From contig CAZPMS010000006.1 in the NCBI GenBank assembly GCA_964588165.1, positions 3,425-67,424 of the forward strand: a stretch of DNA of 64,000 nt. Reading direction: 5' to 3'. Below are positions 31,375 to 49,003 of this stretch, one piece after another. Below the pieces are notes generated by a model, which saw only the letters and a list, made by a program, of their open reading frames with translations, was not told the DNA's origin and searched no databases. The DNA is from an uncultured Gammaproteobacteria bacterium (GTDB lineage: Bacteria; Patescibacteriota; Patescibacteriia; UBA1558; UBA10009). Numbering within the stretch: the stretch's first letter is position 1; each line of letters begins with the position of its first letter. The position numbers and the translations under genes were made by a program.

Positions 31375-31995
31375 TTATCCTTTAAAATCGTTTTTATATA
31401 TAAAATCTACAATATTTCGTATTTGACTCATGTACGGTAGATACATATCATGTAAAATGACTTTCTTTAATTGCCATTTTTCTATGTTTATATCCCGTTC
31501 AGATTTGTCACGATATTTAGCTTTCAACAATGCAATATTTTCAGGTGTATCAACCAAAATATTAAGATTGGATTGATTCTTAAAAATTATAGATGATAAT
31601 AACCCCTCAAAAAGAACTAATTTACATTTAGAAGCATCAATGTAAATTTCTTTATCTAACTCTCCGTTACTAATATTGTAACAATTTTTTTCTACAAATT
31701 TCTGTTTTTGTTTAATTTTTTCTAACACCTCCTGTGCCTTTTCTTTATTATACCAATCCATCAAAACACCTTTATCTTGCTCAAATTTATCTTTCCACTG
31801 TGTTCGAGGGATCTTGAAAAATAAATCCATCGTAAGTAAAATGGATTCTTTAAGGGAATATTTAATAATCTGATCTGCAAGATAACTTTTACCACTTCCT
31901 ACAATACCCTCAATAACTATAATAACTGGAAAATTTGTTTGCTCCTGTAAACTAATTATTTTTTGCTTAATTTTTTTAAATGTTACTGAGTCCAT
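31375..31995 (-). CDS. P-loop nucleoside/nucleotide kinase-like protein
   Basis: 206 aa. Walker A GIVGSGKS. Confidence 0.5.
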   Translation of the reverse strand: MDSVTFKKIKQKIISLQEQTNFPVIIVIEGIVGSGKSYLADQIIKYSLKESILLTMDLFFKIPRTQWKDKFEQDKGVLMDWYNKEKAQEVLEKIKQKQKFVEKNCYNISNGELDKEIYIDASKCKLVLFEGLLSSIIFKNQSNLNILVDTPENIALLKAKYRDKSERDINIEKWQLKKVILHDMYLPYMSQIRNIVDFIYKNDFKG

Positions 31996-32034
31996 AAAAT
32001 TCCCTTTTCAGTAATTAATATCTTATCATGCAAA

Positions 32035-32132
32035 TGGCAGGGATTTGCCCCGCTTTTCGTGAAAGGCGGGATAAAAACCCAGACCAACGGTTTTGGACCC
32101 AGCCCTTCGCGAAGGGCTGGGTGGAGACCCTC
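32035..32132 (-). pseudogene. ghost of tRNA-Trp 3' half carrying two GC hairpin insertions
   Basis: Minus strand GAGGGTCTCCA[CCCAGCCCTTCGCGAAGGGCTGGG]TCCAAAACCGTTGGTCTGGGTT[..CCCGCCTTTCACGAAAAGCGGGG]CAAATCCCTGCCA aligns to the tRNA-Trp anticodon stem through CCA. The 3' acceptor strand is mostly deleted. Confidence 0.75.
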
Positions 32133-32148
32133 AAAAATCATATTATTT

Positions 32149-32223
32149 TGGCAGGAGCGCTAGGATTTGAACCCAGACCAACGGTTTTGGAGACCGTCAT
32201 GCTACCATTGACACCACGCTCCC
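32149..32223 (-). tRNA. tRNA-Trp (anticodon CCA)
   Basis: 75 nt cloverleaf GGGAGCG..ACGGT-CTCCAAA-ACCGT..CTGGG-TTCAAAT-CCTAG-CGCTCCT-G-CCA. CCA is encoded. Confidence 0.9.
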
Positions 32224-32258
32224 ATCAAAAAAATATGATTATCTTAAATTTAATCTCT

Positions 32259-32483
32259 TTAAAAGACCATGATAAGCGATCCATATTGTTTTAGTTTTCT
32301 TTCCCTCACTTTGGCATCTATTTCTTTCTGATACGCTTCATAATAAAACAATTTGGGATTTTTCATCCGTTTAGTAGTATACACTTTTCCACTTTTATGT
32401 TCAGACAATCGTCTATTTAGGTTATTAGTATACCCTATGTATATTTTCCCATGATCATCAAGTTGTAAATAAACATAATACAT
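32259..32483 (-). CDS. small GIY-YIG nuclease-family protein (COG2827-like)
   Basis: 74 aa. YVYLQ..GKIYIGYTNNLNRRLSEH..YYE. Ends 36 nt upstream of tRNA-Trp on the same strand. Confidence 0.8.
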   Translation of the reverse strand: MYYVYLQLDDHGKIYIGYTNNLNRRLSEHKSGKVYTTKRMKNPKLFYYEAYQKEIDAKVRERKLKQYGSLIMVF

Positions 32484-32552
32484 AATCGCTTTTCTTAATT
32501 CTTAAAAATAGATATCAAAAAACACTACTTACCGATTACTGTTTACTAATAA

Positions 32553-32963
32553 CTAATTTCTCAGATACTGTTCAAGATTTAAATCATCAATAAGTTCTGG
32601 AAATTTCTTTAGCAAATAAACATGGCGATCTGTTCTTTCACCGGTAGCCTCATTAAACAGTGGGTTGCTGCCGGTATATACTGTATCTTTACTGTTACCG
32701 TATTTATTCAGGTTTTTTTCTTCCAGCCATTGGTCTATTTTTTCTTTGCCTTGTGAAGTGAGTTGAGCCACGAAATCATCAGCCCATCCTTCACCCTGTT
32801 CTTCCCACCAGTTTTGAGCTTCATCCAAACCTTGGTTGATTAGTAAAGGAGTTTTTTCTTCAACTTTAGTTTGCCAAGAAGCCAGCCAGGCAGAAATATC
32901 TTCATGCCAGATAAGGCCGACTAAAGCACCCATTATTATTATGAATAAAAGCGTCTTTATCAT
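32553..32963 (-). CDS. hypothetical secreted/anchored protein
   Basis: 136 aa, N-terminal hydrophobic helix, Trp/Glu-rich. Confidence 0.5.
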   Translation of the reverse strand: MIKTLLFIIIMGALVGLIWHEDISAWLASWQTKVEEKTPLLINQGLDEAQNWWEEQGEGWADDFVAQLTSQGKEKIDQWLEEKNLNKYGNSKDTVYTGSNPLFNEATGERTDRHVYLLKKFPELIDDLNLEQYLRN

Positions 32964-32981
32964 ACTTTTGATAAATTTAGC

Positions 32982-33137
32982 TTATTTAGTTTCTTTGTGG
33001 AGGGTATGTTTTTTACAATGTTTACAGAATTTCTTAAGTTCCAATCTTTCCTTTAAAGTTTTTTTGTTCTTTCTGGAATATTGGTTGACTCTTTTGCACT
33101 CTGTACATTCTAACTTTATCAAGTTATCTTGCGACAT
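32982..33137 (-). CDS. rpmG: 50S ribosomal protein L33
   Basis: Not in the ORF track (51 aa): [51 protein letters not shown]. Has the CxxC...CxxC zinc ribbon and the LHKETK end typical of L33. Confidence 0.9.
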
Positions 33138-33211
33138 AGTATTTTTAGTTAAATTACAAATTATTTAATGGCCGCGCCATGAAGTTTATGAGCGCAGCGA
33201 ATAATACTTCA

Positions 33212-33286
33212 TGGAGCCGAGAAGAGGAATCGAACCCCCAACCTACAGTTTACAAAACTGTTGCTCTACCATTGAGCTATCTCGGC
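33212..33286 (-). tRNA. tRNA-Thr (anticodon UGU)
   Basis: 75 nt GCCGAGA-TA-GCTC-AATGGTA-GAGC-A-ACAGT-TTTGTAA-ACTGT-AGGTT-GGGGG-TTCGATT-CCTCT-TCTCGGC-T-CCA. Confidence 0.9.
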
Positions 33287-33308
33287 GTGTATCTATTTTT
33301 AAAATGTT

Positions 33309-33415
33309 CCTACAGTTTATGCCGCCTTTAGGAGGTGGCAAAACTGTTGCTCCCTGCCCCGTTTACTCCAAACAAATGTGAGGAGTTATGCGGGGTACCA
33401 TTGAGCTACAACGGC
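33309..33415 (-). pseudogene. ghost tRNA-Thr(UGU), 5' two-thirds, different acceptor (GCCGTTG), two hairpin insertions
   Basis: GCCGTTGTAGCTCAATGGT[43-44 nt hairpin 33353-33396]GAGCAACAGTTTT[GCCACCTCCTAAAGGCGGC 33321-33339]ATAAACTGTAGG. T-arm and 3' acceptor are missing. Confidence 0.8.
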
Positions 33416-33553
33416 TCGTTAGACTCACGATGCCTCTCAACTTCGTTCGAGACACTCGACTTCTTCTTAATATATCTCATTATATATCTCATTAATAAAT
33501 TATGGTCGTAGGCCACGAGCGTAGTATCGAACAAAGTGAGATACGAAGTCGAG

Positions 33554-33638
33554 TGGTGGGCCGGGCAGGATTCGAACCTGCGAAGGCAGAGCCAACAGAT
33601 TTACAGTCTGTCCCGTTTGACCGCTTCGGTACCGACCC
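33554..33638 (-). tRNA. tRNA-Tyr (anticodon GUA), class II with long variable arm
   Basis: 85 nt GGGTCGG..ACAGA-CTGTAAA-TCTGT-TGGCTCTGCCTTC-GCAGG-TTCGAAT-CCTGC-CCGGCCC-A-CCA. Confidence 0.9.
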
Positions 33639-33882
33639 ACAAATTTTTAACTAGCTCCTTAAAGGCTCTTCCTCCTTTATAAGATTTTATCAGAAGCTCT
33701 CTTTTATATGCATCTTGTTTAGAAAAATATCTTTCCGAATAAACCAACTTCCAAGGGACACCTGATTTTGTTGATTTTACAAAACCTTTATTATGTCTAG
33801 CTAAACGATTAAATAAATTCTTACAATGACCTGTATAGTATCTATCTAAAGATTTACTATGCAATATATAAACTATAAACAT
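33601..33882 (-). CDS. small GIY-YIG nuclease-family protein whose 3' end is encoded by tRNA-Tyr
   Basis: IVYILHS..RYYTGHCKNLFNRLARH. ATG at 33882 (the track uses GTG at 33885). The last 38 nt are tRNA-Tyr positions 1-38, and the stop TAA is the GUAAA of the anticodon loop. Confidence 0.8.
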   Translation of the reverse strand: MFIVYILHSKSLDRYYTGHCKNLFNRLARHNKGFVKSTKSGVPWKLVYSERYFSKQDAYKRELLIKSYKGGRAFKELVKNLWVGTEAVKRDRL

Positions 33883-33896
33883 CACTTTTCATTTAA

Positions 33897-33995
33897 GATT
33901 TATGCCCGCCTATGGCGGCACCCCGCCGTAGGCGGTGGCAGTCTGTCCCGTTTATCCCGCCAAAGGCGGCGATTTGACCGCTTCGGTACCGACCC
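33897..33995 (-). pseudogene. ghost tRNA-Tyr 5' half (positions 1-41) with hairpin insertions in the D-loop and anticodon loop
   Basis: GGGTCGGTACCGAAGCGGTCAAA[TCGCCGCCTTTGGCGGGAT, TTT duplicated]AAACGGGACAGACTG[36-nt double hairpin 33903-33938]TAAATCT, then diverges into the GIY-YIG gene. Confidence 0.8.
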
Positions 33996-34086
33996 GATGG
34001 AGCCGTTGTGCGGACTCGAACCACAAACCCCTTCCTTACCCCCGCAAGATTTCGTTTCACTCAATCTGCGGGGCAAGCATGGAAGT

Positions 34087-34202
<116 letters not shown>

Positions 34203-34318
34203 AAGTGCTCCCTGCCCCGCTTACTCCGAACAAAAGTAGGAGTTATGCGGGGTACCAACTGAGCTACAACGGCAATAATGTTTTTTTAAAAAAACATATT
34301 CTTATGGCATAACTTCTT

Positions 34319-34371
34319 TCTACCCCAGCCAAAGGCTGGTCCGCCTCTGACGGAAACTGAGCTATGTCGGC
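34319..34371 (-). pseudogene. third tRNA-Thr-like 5' fragment (acceptor GCCGACA) with a twin hairpin in the D-loop
   Basis: GCCGACATAGCTCAGTT[TCCGTCAGAGGCGGA][CCAGCCTTTGGCTGG]GGTAGA, then decays. The perfect palindrome ATGTTTTTTTAAAAAAACAT (34279-34298) lies downstream. Confidence 0.65.
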
Positions 34372-34394
34372 ACGTTAGGCATTACTTTATTTAA

Positions 34395-35279
34395 CTATAA
34401 CTTCTCAATCACTTCCTTAAATTCTGATAATTTTTGATTTTCAGGATTAACTTCCTTTAACTGGCTAAAAGCCTTTAAAGCAGCACCTTTATCTCGGACT
34501 ATTATACTGACTTCTATCAAAAAGTCAAGAACTTTGGGGTTATTAGGCTCAATACTGGCAGCACGGCTAATTATTTCAAAGGCCTGTTCCGGCTCATCTA
34601 AATTTAAATATACTTCGGAAAGGTCCAAATAGCTGGAAATATCGGTTGAATCTAATTCTAAAGATCTCTGTAACTCCTGCTGGGCCTTTTTTAAATCACC
34701 TTTATCTGAAGCAATTTCACCCAAGCTCCGATAAACAGAAGAATCCTGATCGTTTAAATTTAATAGGAATTCAAAGGTTTCTTTAGCGTGTTCGTAATCT
34801 TTCTGTTCTAAATAAAGTTTGCCTAAGCCTTTATAGGCAATAGTGTTTTTATTATCAACCTGCAGGATTTCAATATACTTTTTTTCCGCTTCAGCATATT
34901 TGCCAAGTTTAGCTAAAGTTTCTGCTTCAGTTAAAAGCTGGTTAGTAAACTGCTGTTTATCAACTTTATCTTTAAAGCTTGATTTGAGCGTCTTGTGCCT
35001 GTATTTTTCCTCCAACTCTATCAAGCGCTGATACCAATTTTTAGATTTACTTATAATTAGTCTGCCCAAGGGTTTTAAAAATAATAATGATTTATCCAGA
35101 GTTCCTTTAAATCTTCTATCTAACCTTTCTTCTAAAATTTTTCTTTTTACCTGAAGCTGCTTTACCATGGGGGTTGCCTTAGAATTTACAGCTACTGCCT
35201 TGGGTACCTTCTTTAAAAAAATGTAAGCAATAACTCCCAAGCTAACTATAATGATTACTATTAAAACGTAAAAAAACAT
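34395..35279 (-). CDS. TPR-repeat protein with N-terminal membrane anchor
   Basis: 294 aa. Repeated AxxxYxxAL/GxYxxA TPR-like units (e.g. LGKYAEAEKKYIEILQVDNKN). Confidence 0.7.
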   Translation of the reverse strand: MFFYVLIVIIIVSLGVIAYIFLKKVPKAVAVNSKATPMVKQLQVKRKILEERLDRRFKGTLDKSLLFLKPLGRLIISKSKNWYQRLIELEEKYRHKTLKSSFKDKVDKQQFTNQLLTEAETLAKLGKYAEAEKKYIEILQVDNKNTIAYKGLGKLYLEQKDYEHAKETFEFLLNLNDQDSSVYRSLGEIASDKGDLKKAQQELQRSLELDSTDISSYLDLSEVYLNLDEPEQAFEIISRAASIEPNNPKVLDFLIEVSIIVRDKGAALKAFSQLKEVNPENQKLSEFKEVIEKL

Positions 35280-48777: not shown

Positions 48778-48954
48778 TGGCTGCCGGGGCTGGATTTTCA
48801 CCCCGCCGTATTGGCTGTGGAGACAGGACTCGAACCTGTAACATTCGCATTAACAGTGCGACGTTCTACCATTGAACTACTCCACAACTAATGTAGATAG
48901 ACGAAAATACTGCCCGCCAAAGGCGGGTCCGCCCTTGGCGGAAACTACCCGGCA
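48778..48954 (-). pseudogene. outer (disrupted) tRNA-Asn-like gene enclosing the intact tRNA-Asn
   Basis: The 5' piece is TGCCGGG-TA-GTT[twin hairpin 48913-48942]CAGTA (48954->48908). The 3' piece is ...CCCGGCA-G-CCA (48809->48778). The acceptor halves TGCCGGG/CCCGGCA are perfectly complementary. The anticodon arm is missing. Confidence 0.7.
48812..48886 (-). tRNA. tRNA-Asn (anticodon GUU)
   Basis: 75 nt TGTGGAG-TA-GTTC-AATGGTA-GAAC-G-TCGCA-CTGTTAA-TGCGA-ATGTT-ACAGG-TTCGAGT-CCTGT-CTCCACA-G-CCA. A U1-A72 pair also occurs in E. coli tRNA-Asn. Confidence 0.9.
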
Positions 48955-48977
48955 AACTTGTTCGCCGAAGAGGCGAA

Positions 48978-49003
48978 ATAAAAAACCCGCCGAACTTGGC
49001 GGG
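48978..49003 (-). terminator. Rho-independent terminator downstream of the GerMN lipoprotein gene
   Basis: Minus strand CCCGCCAAGTTCGGCGGG followed by TTTTTTAT. Confidence 0.7.

Follow-up and report, generated by a model that had tools for sequence, protein, structure and literature searches.

Why a small nuclease gene should be held between a broken and a complete copy of the same tRNA gene is the question raised by a locus on a 64-kb stretch of DNA (hereafter the window) from a low-GC (about 36%) Patescibacteria genome. On the minus strand of this locus, an open reading frame (ORF) encoding a GIY-YIG nuclease is preceded by a hairpin-bearing partial copy of tRNA-Tyr, to which we refer as a ghost, and is followed by the intact tRNA-Tyr gene, into which the ORF runs. 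The original prediction explained this layout by the insertion of a unit consisting of the ORF and a new tRNA 5' half into the resident gene. We propose instead that the locus is a member of a widespread family of homing-type selfish cassettes, which reside in the tRNA transcription units of Patescibacteria and duplicate their tRNA target, a reading to which we assign a probability of about 0.5. A mobile nuclease gene that preserves its tRNA target by duplication is favored because the recurrence of the arrangement, the conservation of the ORF as coding, its patchy distribution and its association with ghosts fit together.

A nuclease ORF between a ghost and an intact copy of tRNA-Tyr

The order of tRNA-Tyr ghost, spacer, GIY-YIG ORF and intact tRNA-Tyr (Table 1) was confirmed by alignment, ARAGORN, Rfam and Pfam, the intact gene being the working copy of the target. 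The product of the ORF matched the GIY-YIG family of Pfam (PF01541) with E=7.6e-12 and 45.8 bits (cutoff 22.6); its 93-aa form starting at ATG is the database protein P0001, and an alternative GTG start at 33885 would yield a form of 94 aa. The spacer of 13 nt before the ATG was found as described. Equally, direct inspection of the sequence verified that the final 38 nt of the ORF (33638-33601) are tRNA-Tyr positions 1-38, with the TAA stop codon (33603-33601) located inside the anticodon loop CTGTAAA.

The ghost and its two inserts are real as well, although its extent is positions 1-42 rather than 1-41, and the second insert turned out to be two abutting hairpins. In pairwise alignment, three blocks of the ghost (33995-33976, 33953-33939 and 33902-33896) correspond at 100% identity to tRNA-Tyr positions 1-20, 21-35 and 36-42, respectively, and chance is excluded because these 42 identical bases are in register with tRNA-Tyr. 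Both inserts are GC-rich hairpins, of which the D-loop type was found in some related ghosts and was absent from others. As DNA, the ghost folds with -25.3 kcal/mol (z=-2.8 vs shuffles). A promoter and terminator scan gave counts no better than those of shuffled sequences and was uninformative.

Two other identities for the locus were considered and rejected. With regard to a group I intron or other known RNA, an Rfam search at E<=1 over 31500-35000 returned only tRNAs and two chance hits, and the search of the whole window at gathering thresholds returned tRNAs only. With regard to a split or intron-bearing functional tRNA, the points at which ghosts are truncated vary, and almost all inspected ghosts have an intact copy next to them; the Tyr ghost stops at position 42 without any 3' part, and a ghost of tRNA-Trp, described below, has an internal deletion.

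Downstream of tRNA-Tyr, at about 33503-33525 on the minus strand, the window contains a conserved 17-nt motif, CTCRTGGYCTRCGACCA, with a small hairpin. The motif recurs in L005 (1709-1725), L070 (5029-5045) and L076 (5429-5445), that is, in four distinct genomes in total, in or near the tRNA cluster, and in the window, L005 and L076 it lies 3' of a tRNA-Tyr copy. It could be a processing or termination signal.

ORFs of the family abut tRNA genes of several isotypes

Homologues were assembled into a set of 91 distinct ORFs from Patescibacteria, which includes 80 loci added by a scan of metagenomes, where 500 or more homologous ORFs were seen, and an ORF was regarded as linked to a tRNA if its end fell within -60 to +60 nt of the start of a tRNA on the same strand. 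Such a link was present for 66 of the 91 ORFs, as opposed to ~2.6% expected from random placement. The linked tRNAs belong to six isotypes (Tyr 29, Ser 23, Thr 9, Pro 2, Trp 2 and Cys 1), and in 52 of the 66 ORF-tRNA pairs a k-mer search detected a neighboring ghost of the tRNA concerned, in most cases of its 5' part and immediately before the ORF. In the tree of the ORFs, nearest neighbors shared the same isotype in 51 of 67 cases. We interpret these data as a recurrent process that has operated at dozens of independent loci, and the interpretation given in the original prediction is to that extent partly supported.

Homologues P0004, P0005, P0008, P0029 and P0035 (56-66% identity) share the tRNA-Tyr-encoded tail (V)GTEAVKRDRL, and on their contigs, which are syntenic with the window (TIM, aldolase, TPR protein, tRNA cluster, L33), the ORF runs into tRNA-Tyr in all cases. 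Most ORFs of the family, however, stop 0-22 nt before the tRNA, and the -38 overlap is limited to some of the tRNA-Tyr cassettes. Fusion of the ORF to the tRNA with a stop codon in the anticodon loop is not the defining feature and is a side-effect of the junction in one sub-group.

At least one example of the cassette lies outside the Patescibacteria. In a Melioribacteraceae genome of 3.7 Mb (GCA_027493725.1), the same layout is present at tRNA-Ser(GCT) (L174, 1270-1850), where two tRNA-Ser(GCT) ghosts, the double hairpin (see below) in a D-loop and an ORF whose ATG is located within the anticodon loop of the ghost are followed by the intact tRNA. There, ~10 nt of the 5' leader are duplicated too.

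A minimal GIY-YIG protein under purifying selection

The Tyr-linked protein consists of the catalytic domain only, of ~80 residues (core about 79-83 aa). By profile comparison, its closest solved relatives are UPF0213 proteins (1zg2, E=1.5e-10; 1ywl, E=1.1e-8) and then SLX1 (7cq2, E=3.2e-5), and the single-domain build is likewise that of UPF0213/COG2827 and SLX1. On this similarity, the protein is placed within the GIY-YIG superfamily in the UPF0213/SLX1-type branch and not in the Seg or I-TevI group. The resemblance to SegB of phage T4 suggested in the original prediction holds for the setting, a free-standing GIY-YIG nuclease gene beside tRNA genes, and fails for the protein: SegB is a phage protein of ~220 aa with a DNA-binding part, whereas the protein described here is chromosomal, 79-94 aa long and restricted to the catalytic domain, with no PHROG or phage match.

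Among the reference collections, NCBIfam contained no model matching the Tyr-linked ORF, TIGR01453 included; PHROG gave no match; and the viral collections gave one weak match in IMG/VR and none in INPHARED. Since the family is essentially absent from the viral collections (IMG/VR, INPHARED, PHROG), a phage origin was rejected. A known defense system was rejected also, as PADLOC reported no match to the Tyr-linked ORF and, for a second, Trp-linked ORF of the window (see below), matches that were weak and at the domain level only. In the literature, we found no published tie of the UPF0213 family to tRNA genes or to mobility.

That the ORF is conserved as coding is evident from both its residues and its codons. 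In a 23-sequence alignment, the GIY-YIG residues Y17, G19, H31, R62 and E63 are invariant, with Y6 and R27 nearly so, and dN/dS in the family is 0.04-0.31, indicating purifying selection on the ORF. Between the cassettes of L006 and L017, for instance, dS amounts to 1.77 with dN/dS of 0.06. Proteins of the family range from 72 to 131 aa. Outside the core, their residues derive from translation of tRNA or ghost sequence, and the extension at the N terminus of P0004, in particular, resembles a translated ghost and hairpin.

Sporadic occurrence at a conserved site

With the neighboring TPR protein as a probe, 80 syntenic loci were retrieved, and the ORF was present in 18 of them. The closest relatives (L008, L009 and L010; TPR identity 60-54%) are without the ORF, and in L008 and L009 the tRNA clusters are compact and ghost-free, whereas L089 (TPR 56%) has the cassette; filled sites (window, L089) and empty sites (L008-L010) are thus found in the same clade. 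The identity of the ORF to that of the window remains at 58-64% throughout, while the TPR identity of the host drops from 56% to 34%. Ghosts were detected at 13 of 18 ORF-positive compared with 14 of 62 ORF-negative loci (p=0.0002), and the double hairpin at 6 of 18 compared with 2 of 62 (p=0.0013). Such sporadic presence at a conserved site that is empty in close relatives is also shown by homing endonuclease genes.

L076 carries ghosts without ORFs and, when set against its relative L007, looks like the state after loss of the ORF. A further locus, L170, was rejected as an ORF-less allele, the gene caller having missed its ORF. P0001 was found in identical form on nine contigs. The nine, which originate from several samples and share the identical protein or the neighboring gene, cover the region at 99.2-100% identity.

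A conserved double hairpin in tRNA loops

The insert in the anticodon loop of the Tyr ghost has the sequence CCACCGCC-TAC-GGCGGGG T GCCGCC-ATA-GGCGGGCA. Its counterparts in other ghosts define a consensus of ~36 nt, CCACCGCC-nnn-GGCGGGG / T(G/C)CCGCC-nnn-GGCGG(C/G)A, the fold of which comprises two 7-bp stems that abut each other and have free loops; pairing holds in 96% of cells, with compensatory change in 3 pairs. This double hairpin was found in the loops of ghost tRNAs at many loci and accompanies the ORF in Melioribacteraceae too. It is located at the center of a tRNA loop just 3' of G, usually in the anticodon loop (34/35 or 35/36) and sometimes in the D- or T-loop, and occurs in either orientation, the flanking sequence being in every case that of the local isotype (Ser, Pro, Thr, Tyr). 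The double hairpin is a conserved element tied to the ORF family and not a product of random decay. Because local-isotype flanks, the use of any of three loops and both orientations rule out passive linkage, it must insert actively. Where it is present, the longest uninterrupted identity between ghost and intact copy is 23 nt or less.

Short GC-rich modules, known as GC clusters or double-hairpin elements, spread in the AT-rich genomes of fungal mitochondria alongside endonuclease ORFs. The double hairpin described here can be likened to them as such a module, no relation in sequence being expected, and is confined to the loops of redundant tRNA copies, which is not described for those elements.

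Variant layouts and a proposed scheme for the cassette

Relatives of the window locus differ in which copy of the tRNA is disabled and by how much. The ORF-facing end of the ghost varies among loci from ~position 38 to ~75, and the left edge of the duplication is at tRNA position +1 in 32 of 37 loci. A mirror layout, in which the intact tRNA is followed by the ORF and a 3' ghost, is present in L099 and L147; L152 has a nearly full-length ghost with a hairpin in all three loops; and L017, L006 and L019 have double ghosts, one of the 5' type ahead of the ORF and one of the 3' type behind the intact gene. At 4 of 37 loci, ghost and intact tRNA are preceded by matching stretches of 30 nt. At L104 the duplicated upstream stretch is visibly the tail of the ORF, at L162 ORFs are in tandem, and at L114 15 nt are shared upstream. 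Tandem arrays of hairpin-bearing ghosts beside intact genes (L020, 5328-5865; L081, 5300-5640; L089, 2097-2270), with periods of ~111 and ~144 nt in L020 and L081, fit repeated segmental duplication. Because of the mirror, near-full ghost, double-ghost, upstream-duplicated and tandem-array loci taken together, the starting product was probably tRNA-ORF-tRNA, either copy of which was then disabled and trimmed.

Building on this product, we propose the following scheme. The active part of the cassette would be a minimal GIY-YIG nuclease gene between two same-sense copies of its target tRNA. One copy, left intact, would keep the cell viable, and the other would be redundant, shortened at its ORF-facing end and interrupted in its loops by the double hairpin. 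As the initial step, we infer that the nuclease breaks the DNA of a tRNA gene, upon which recombinational repair would duplicate the ORF-tRNA unit and generate tRNA-ORF-tRNA. The two tRNA copies could then serve as portable homology arms, such that a double crossover in the single tRNA gene of a naive genome would rebuild the whole sandwich. Subsequently, the redundant copy would decay, and the double hairpin, by breaking homology, may hinder recombinational loss of the cassette and would leave the ghost useless as a tRNA. Loss of the ORF, finally, would leave ghosts alone, as may have occurred at tRNA-Thr(TGT) of the window. The fusion would in addition imply co-transcription of ORF and tRNA, in which case a cut by RNase P at the tRNA 5' end would produce an ORF message lacking a stop codon, possibly keeping nuclease levels low.

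A number of observations weigh against such a selfish homing cassette. Loci without the cassette, which the original prediction had led one to expect, exist as clean sites in the relatives L008 and L009, but none is found among the nine population contigs: the population of the window has no empty allele, the layout being identical on 9 of 9 contigs. The intact tRNA restores the full target, leaving no obvious self-protection from the cassette's own nuclease, and the protein has no DNA-binding domain for sequence-specific homing. Long-lasting purifying selection in apparently vertical cassettes would not usually be expected of a gene that is selfish only, and may point to a role at the level of the host. 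The ORF tree is poorly resolved and tracks isotype only partly. Moreover, passive linkage fails to explain the double hairpin, which evidently inserts on its own.

Alternative explanations

Two alternatives, structure-guided transposition and a domesticated role, stay alive because of the lasting selection, the fixed layout, the lack of self-protection and the self-insertion of the hairpin. According to the first, the SLX1-like nuclease and the double hairpin would form a structure-guided transposon: the nuclease would recognize hairpin or cruciform DNA, nick the center of 7-nt tRNA loops and insert the double hairpin there, while its staggered cuts at the 5' edge of the tRNA and in or past the anticodon arm would leave the 5' part of the tRNA as a long target-site duplication upon landing of the ORF. 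The constant position of the double hairpin 3' of G in mid-loop, in either orientation and between local-isotype flanks, is what this model expects, as are the conservation of its sequence in two phyla together with the ORF and its enrichment at ORF-bearing loci. The nearest solved relatives of the nuclease, UPF0213 and the structure-specific SLX1, are compatible with such recognition, as is the lack of a DNA-binding domain; the predominance of tRNA +1 as the left duplication edge (32/37) and the fact that isotype-switching ORFs always gain a ghost of the local tRNA point in the same direction. On the other hand, we know of no GIY-YIG transposase, the spread of the ghost 3' edge from ~38 to 75 leaves no fixed second cut, mirror loci and tandem ORF-tRNA units suit recombination better than cut-and-paste, and the double hairpin is devoid of terminal repeats or a target duplication of its own. 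On balance we consider this transposon distinctly unlikely. It is likewise unlikely that the catalytic-domain-only GIY-YIG protein and the ~36-nt double hairpin constitute a new DNA-structure-guided mobile system. In such a system, the nuclease would recognize the single-stranded or cruciform hairpin loops of tRNA genes and nick them just 3' of the central G, the nick would both place the hairpin and set off duplication of the target, and tRNA genes would act as both landing pad and vehicle across phyla.

According to the second, which appears quite improbable, the gene has been domesticated and the nuclease is kept by the host either to adjust the copy number of tRNA genes or to repair or replace tRNA genes damaged by insertions of the double-hairpin type or by tRNA-directed toxins, with the hairpin-bearing ghost acting as a 5' leader that drives and tunes expression of the ORF from the promoter of the tRNA. 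Purifying selection over the divergence between L006 and L017, retention of ghost and double hairpin over the same span in streamlined genomes, and fixation of the layout in the sampled population all agree with this view, and tRNA-Tyr amplification driven by SegB in phage T6 is adaptive (PMC13096335). Against it, the ORF occurs in only 18 of the 80 syntenic genomes, and the closest relatives fare well in its absence; ghosts lacking an ORF indicate repeated loss; no match to a known defense family was obtained, and inspection of loci revealed no fixed partner gene; and the occurrence of several paralogues at different tRNAs within a genome is what selfish spread typically produces.

The literal model of the original prediction states that a single insertion at position 42 brought in the nuclease gene together with a foreign tRNA-Tyr 5' half, and that the resident 5' half thereby displaced acquired random hairpins. 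It fits the layout of the window exactly, and fungal mitochondrial endonuclease ORFs do likewise at the 3' ends of protein genes (PMC3630166). Further, the window tRNA-Tyr differs from that of the closest relative L009 in the D-arm and variable arm and matches it in the acceptor stem and T-arm. A foreign origin of the 'new' half is nonetheless not demonstrable, because the 5' halves of ghost and intact copy are 100% identical and nothing marks either as foreign. The ghost end varies (~38 to 75) among relatives, and the mirror and double-ghost loci could not have arisen in this manner and favor an initial tRNA-ORF-tRNA. In addition, a unit carrying a Tyr half could not have founded the Ser, Thr, Pro, Cys and Trp cassettes with ghosts of their own tRNAs, and the anticodon-loop hairpin is conserved instead of random. 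Taken literally, the model is very improbable.

Coincidence, in the sense that copies made by ordinary tandem duplication decayed into pseudogenes and a small, unrelated ORF happens to lie between them, is extremely improbable and already disfavored by the present data: tRNA clusters are prone to unequal recombination and 14 of 62 ORF-less loci do have ghosts, but 66 of 91 ORFs abut a tRNA against ~2.6% expected, one architecture recurs at six isotypes in two phyla, ghosts and double hairpins are enriched with the ORF, and the ORF is under purifying selection.

Further features concern the ancestry of the tRNA copies and a possible co-conversion of flanking target sequence from the donor. A 41-nt core of tRNA-Tyr (positions 8-48) is identical in the -38 cassettes of the window, L006, L007, L017 and L019, and in five ORF-less loci also. 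In L081 and L098, the bases that follow the double hairpin correspond to neither the 5' stem strand of the ghost itself nor the intact copy, a hint of transfer with the cassette and of a mixed origin of the ghost. Differences in the acceptor stem in L006, L019 and L017 were discarded as a marker of donor and resident, for they fit vertical divergence with the ghost as a fossil and are uninformative on mechanism. L007 (4242-4477) and L076 (5262-5590) contain the same two tRNA-Tyr variants with the intact one swapped; their ghosts have an identical hairpin-bearing middle and different 3' ends, and a derivation by a single event was not achieved.

Relation to known systems

The proposed homing cassette has its nearest experimental counterpart in phage. 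In T6, SegB cuts inside tRNA genes and drives recombination-dependent tandem amplification of a unit of tRNA-Tyr and segB (PMC13096335; PMC2330249), and the junction of this amplification is the phage equivalent of the ORF-tRNA fusion described here (PMC13096335); a conserved double hairpin and stable ghosts are not described for SegB in the sections of these reports that were consulted. In fungal mitochondria, endonuclease ORFs bring a duplicated gene end that restores the gene and leave the native end as an unexpressed fragment (PMC3630166). Examples are atp6 of Allomyces and atp6, atp9, cox2 and nad3 of Glomus, where the ORF is sometimes in frame and the atp9 enzyme is of the GIY-YIG type (PMC3630166). 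The window ORF is similarly flanked by a working gene end and a displaced fragment; the fungal cases differ in that organelle protein genes are concerned and the 3' end is duplicated, as opposed to usually the 5' part of a bacterial tRNA gene, and in that the restoring piece is demonstrably foreign there, which cannot be said of the window.

Within Patescibacteria, group I introns insert in tRNA genes at 35/36 (PMC13011429). They share with the double hairpin the phylum and the region of the gene (34/35 or 35/36), yet the cassette has no ribozyme, and its target is kept by duplication and not by splicing. The report on these introns makes no mention of GIY-YIG enzymes, hairpins or tRNA pseudogenes (PMC13011429). 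Integrase-borne islands that target tRNA genes resemble the cassette in that a partial tRNA duplicate flanks the insert and the gene stays intact; here, by contrast, there is no integrase, the insert measures 258 bp, and the displaced part is the 5' part versus their typical 3' part.

Our literature search, the coverage of which was incomplete and does not prove novelty, returned no prior account of bacterial tRNA genes that have ghosts or the hairpin and are abutted by small GIY-YIG ORFs. The cassette family appears as a free-standing homing endonuclease with target duplication that is undescribed, and there is a real chance that the pairing of hairpin and nuclease is new in kind. If the selfish-cassette reading is correct, a large family of selfish nuclease cassettes would reside in the tRNA genes of ultra-small bacteria, along with those of at least one ordinary bacterium, and would invade an essential gene without a self-splicing intron, by duplicating their target and disabling the copy that is spare. 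A behavior shown experimentally only for phage SegB would thereby be extended to cellular chromosomes, and the target-restoring trick of fungal mitochondria to RNA genes. It would also explain the tRNA fragments that litter streamlined tRNA clusters, a possible confounder of annotation, and would provide the first concrete biological context for orphan GIY-YIG proteins of the UPF0213 type. Finally, it singles out a short, conserved, loop-seeking double hairpin with an insertion chemistry that is approachable with simple substrates.

Further ghosts and hairpins in the window

The original prediction was confined to tRNA-Tyr and mentioned neither the ghosts at the other tRNA genes of the cluster nor a second GIY-YIG ORF. 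All three remaining tRNA genes of the cluster are likewise accompanied by hairpin-bearing partial copies (Table 1).

Table 1. Coordinates of tRNA genes, ghosts, hairpins and nuclease ORFs in the window
Feature	Position	Strand	Evidence
Intact tRNA-Tyr(GTA), 85 nt, CCA encoded	33554..33638	minus	ARAGORN; Rfam tRNA model, 60.1 bits, E=9e-12
GIY-YIG nuclease ORF, 93 aa from ATG	33601..33882	minus	ORF list; Pfam PF01541
Spacer, 13 nt, ghost end to ATG	33883..33895	minus	Direct sequence reading
tRNA-Tyr ghost, positions 1-42, 100 nt, two inserts	33896..33995	minus	Pairwise alignment; direct repeats D9, D14
Double hairpin in ghost anticodon loop, 36 nt, after G of CTG^TAAA	33903..33938	minus	
Single GC hairpin in ghost D-loop, 22 nt, core CGCCGCC-TTT-GGCGGG	33954..33975	minus	Alignment gap; hairpin scan
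tRNA-Trp ghost, 3' part (anticodon arm onwards)	32035..32132	minus	Sequence reading; repeats D3 (90%), D18; palindrome I6
Second GIY-YIG ORF, 74 aa	32259..32483	minus	Pfam PF01541, E=7.8e-13, 49 bits; ORF list
tRNA-Thr(TGT) ghost, ~first 46 positions	33309..33415	minus	Sequence reading; repeats D5, D7, D12, D15
Native-type tRNA-Thr(GGT) ghost, 3' part (anticodon arm to CCA)	33998..34085	minus	Sequence reading; repeat D1, 79% to intact copy
Intact tRNA-Thr(GGT), acceptor stem GCCGAGA	34104..34179	minus	ARAGORN; Rfam
Native-type tRNA-Thr(GGT) ghost, 5' part, acceptor GCCGTTG, ~39-nt D-loop hairpin	34203..34273	minus	Sequence reading; repeats D4, D7, D12
Further 5' fragment of a Thr-like tRNA (GCCGACATAGCTCAGTT...GGTAGA), two D-loop hairpins	34319..34371	minus	Sequence reading; repeats D4, D6

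The second nuclease ORF is linked to tRNA-Trp (32149-32223), ending 35 nt upstream of it. It shares 35% identity with the Tyr-linked ORF and clusters in the tree with another Trp-linked ORF. The tRNA-Trp ghost, directly downstream of the intact gene, has hairpins in the anticodon loop and T-loop, along with the internal deletion mentioned above. The tRNA-Trp gene is also flanked by a 24-nt imperfect inverted repeat (window 32136-32240; 83% complementary), its leader pairing with its trailer.

At tRNA-Thr(GGT), the intact gene is flanked by inverted repeats with arms at 34086-34112 and 34175-34201 (I1, 27 nt, 81%), and gene and repeats are nested within a split ghost of the native type, the two halves of which pair with each other (GCCGTTG / CAACGGC); the 3' half carries a 37-nt hairpin in its anticodon loop (34041-34077). 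The GCCGAGA acceptor of the intact gene is rare, being found in 6 of ~95 genes as compared with 52 having GCCGTTG, and the latter, the ghost type, is the intact type in the closest relatives. The Thr(GGT) cassette of the window is without an ORF. Inverted repeats (11-14 bp) that extend the tRNA-Thr(GGT) acceptor stem are present in the window (34086-34201), L010 (4880-5080) and L081 (5180-5320), with sequences that differ across the three and with no ORF. The repeat-bounded unit is placed inside the anticodon stem of the native ghost and is accompanied by a 3-nt direct repeat, CTT in the window and ACT in L081. In appearance, this arrangement resembles a small cassette that carries a tRNA. In L061 (4900-5256), the intact tRNA-Thr(GGT) gene is preceded by two of its 5' ghosts in tandem, both with a D-loop insert of ~100 nt, again with no GIY-YIG ORF.

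The intact tRNA-Thr(TGT) (33212-33286) lies 22 nt downstream of its ghost with no intervening ORF. This ghost has a D-loop hairpin homologous to that of the Thr(GGT) ghost, together with a shortened remnant of the double hairpin after TTTTG^. The D-loop hairpin of ~39 nt common to the Thr(GGT) ghost (34213-34251) and the Thr(TGT) ghost (33357-33396) comprises repeats of 32 nt at 91% and 20 nt at 100%, and is distinct from the double hairpin. A comparable long hairpin occupies the D-loop of a ghost in L010, and CACTTTNGTT, the loop motif of the longer single hairpins, showed no enrichment in the window.

Outside the cluster, the region upstream of tRNA-Asn (48812-48886) contains, at 48913-49003, four GC hairpins of the CCGCC/GGCGG type, two of which abut, preceded by a short stretch, GGGTAGTT, that resembles the 5' end of the tRNA. 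Although the shared tRNA stretch is too short for certainty, this region is possibly a fifth ghost.

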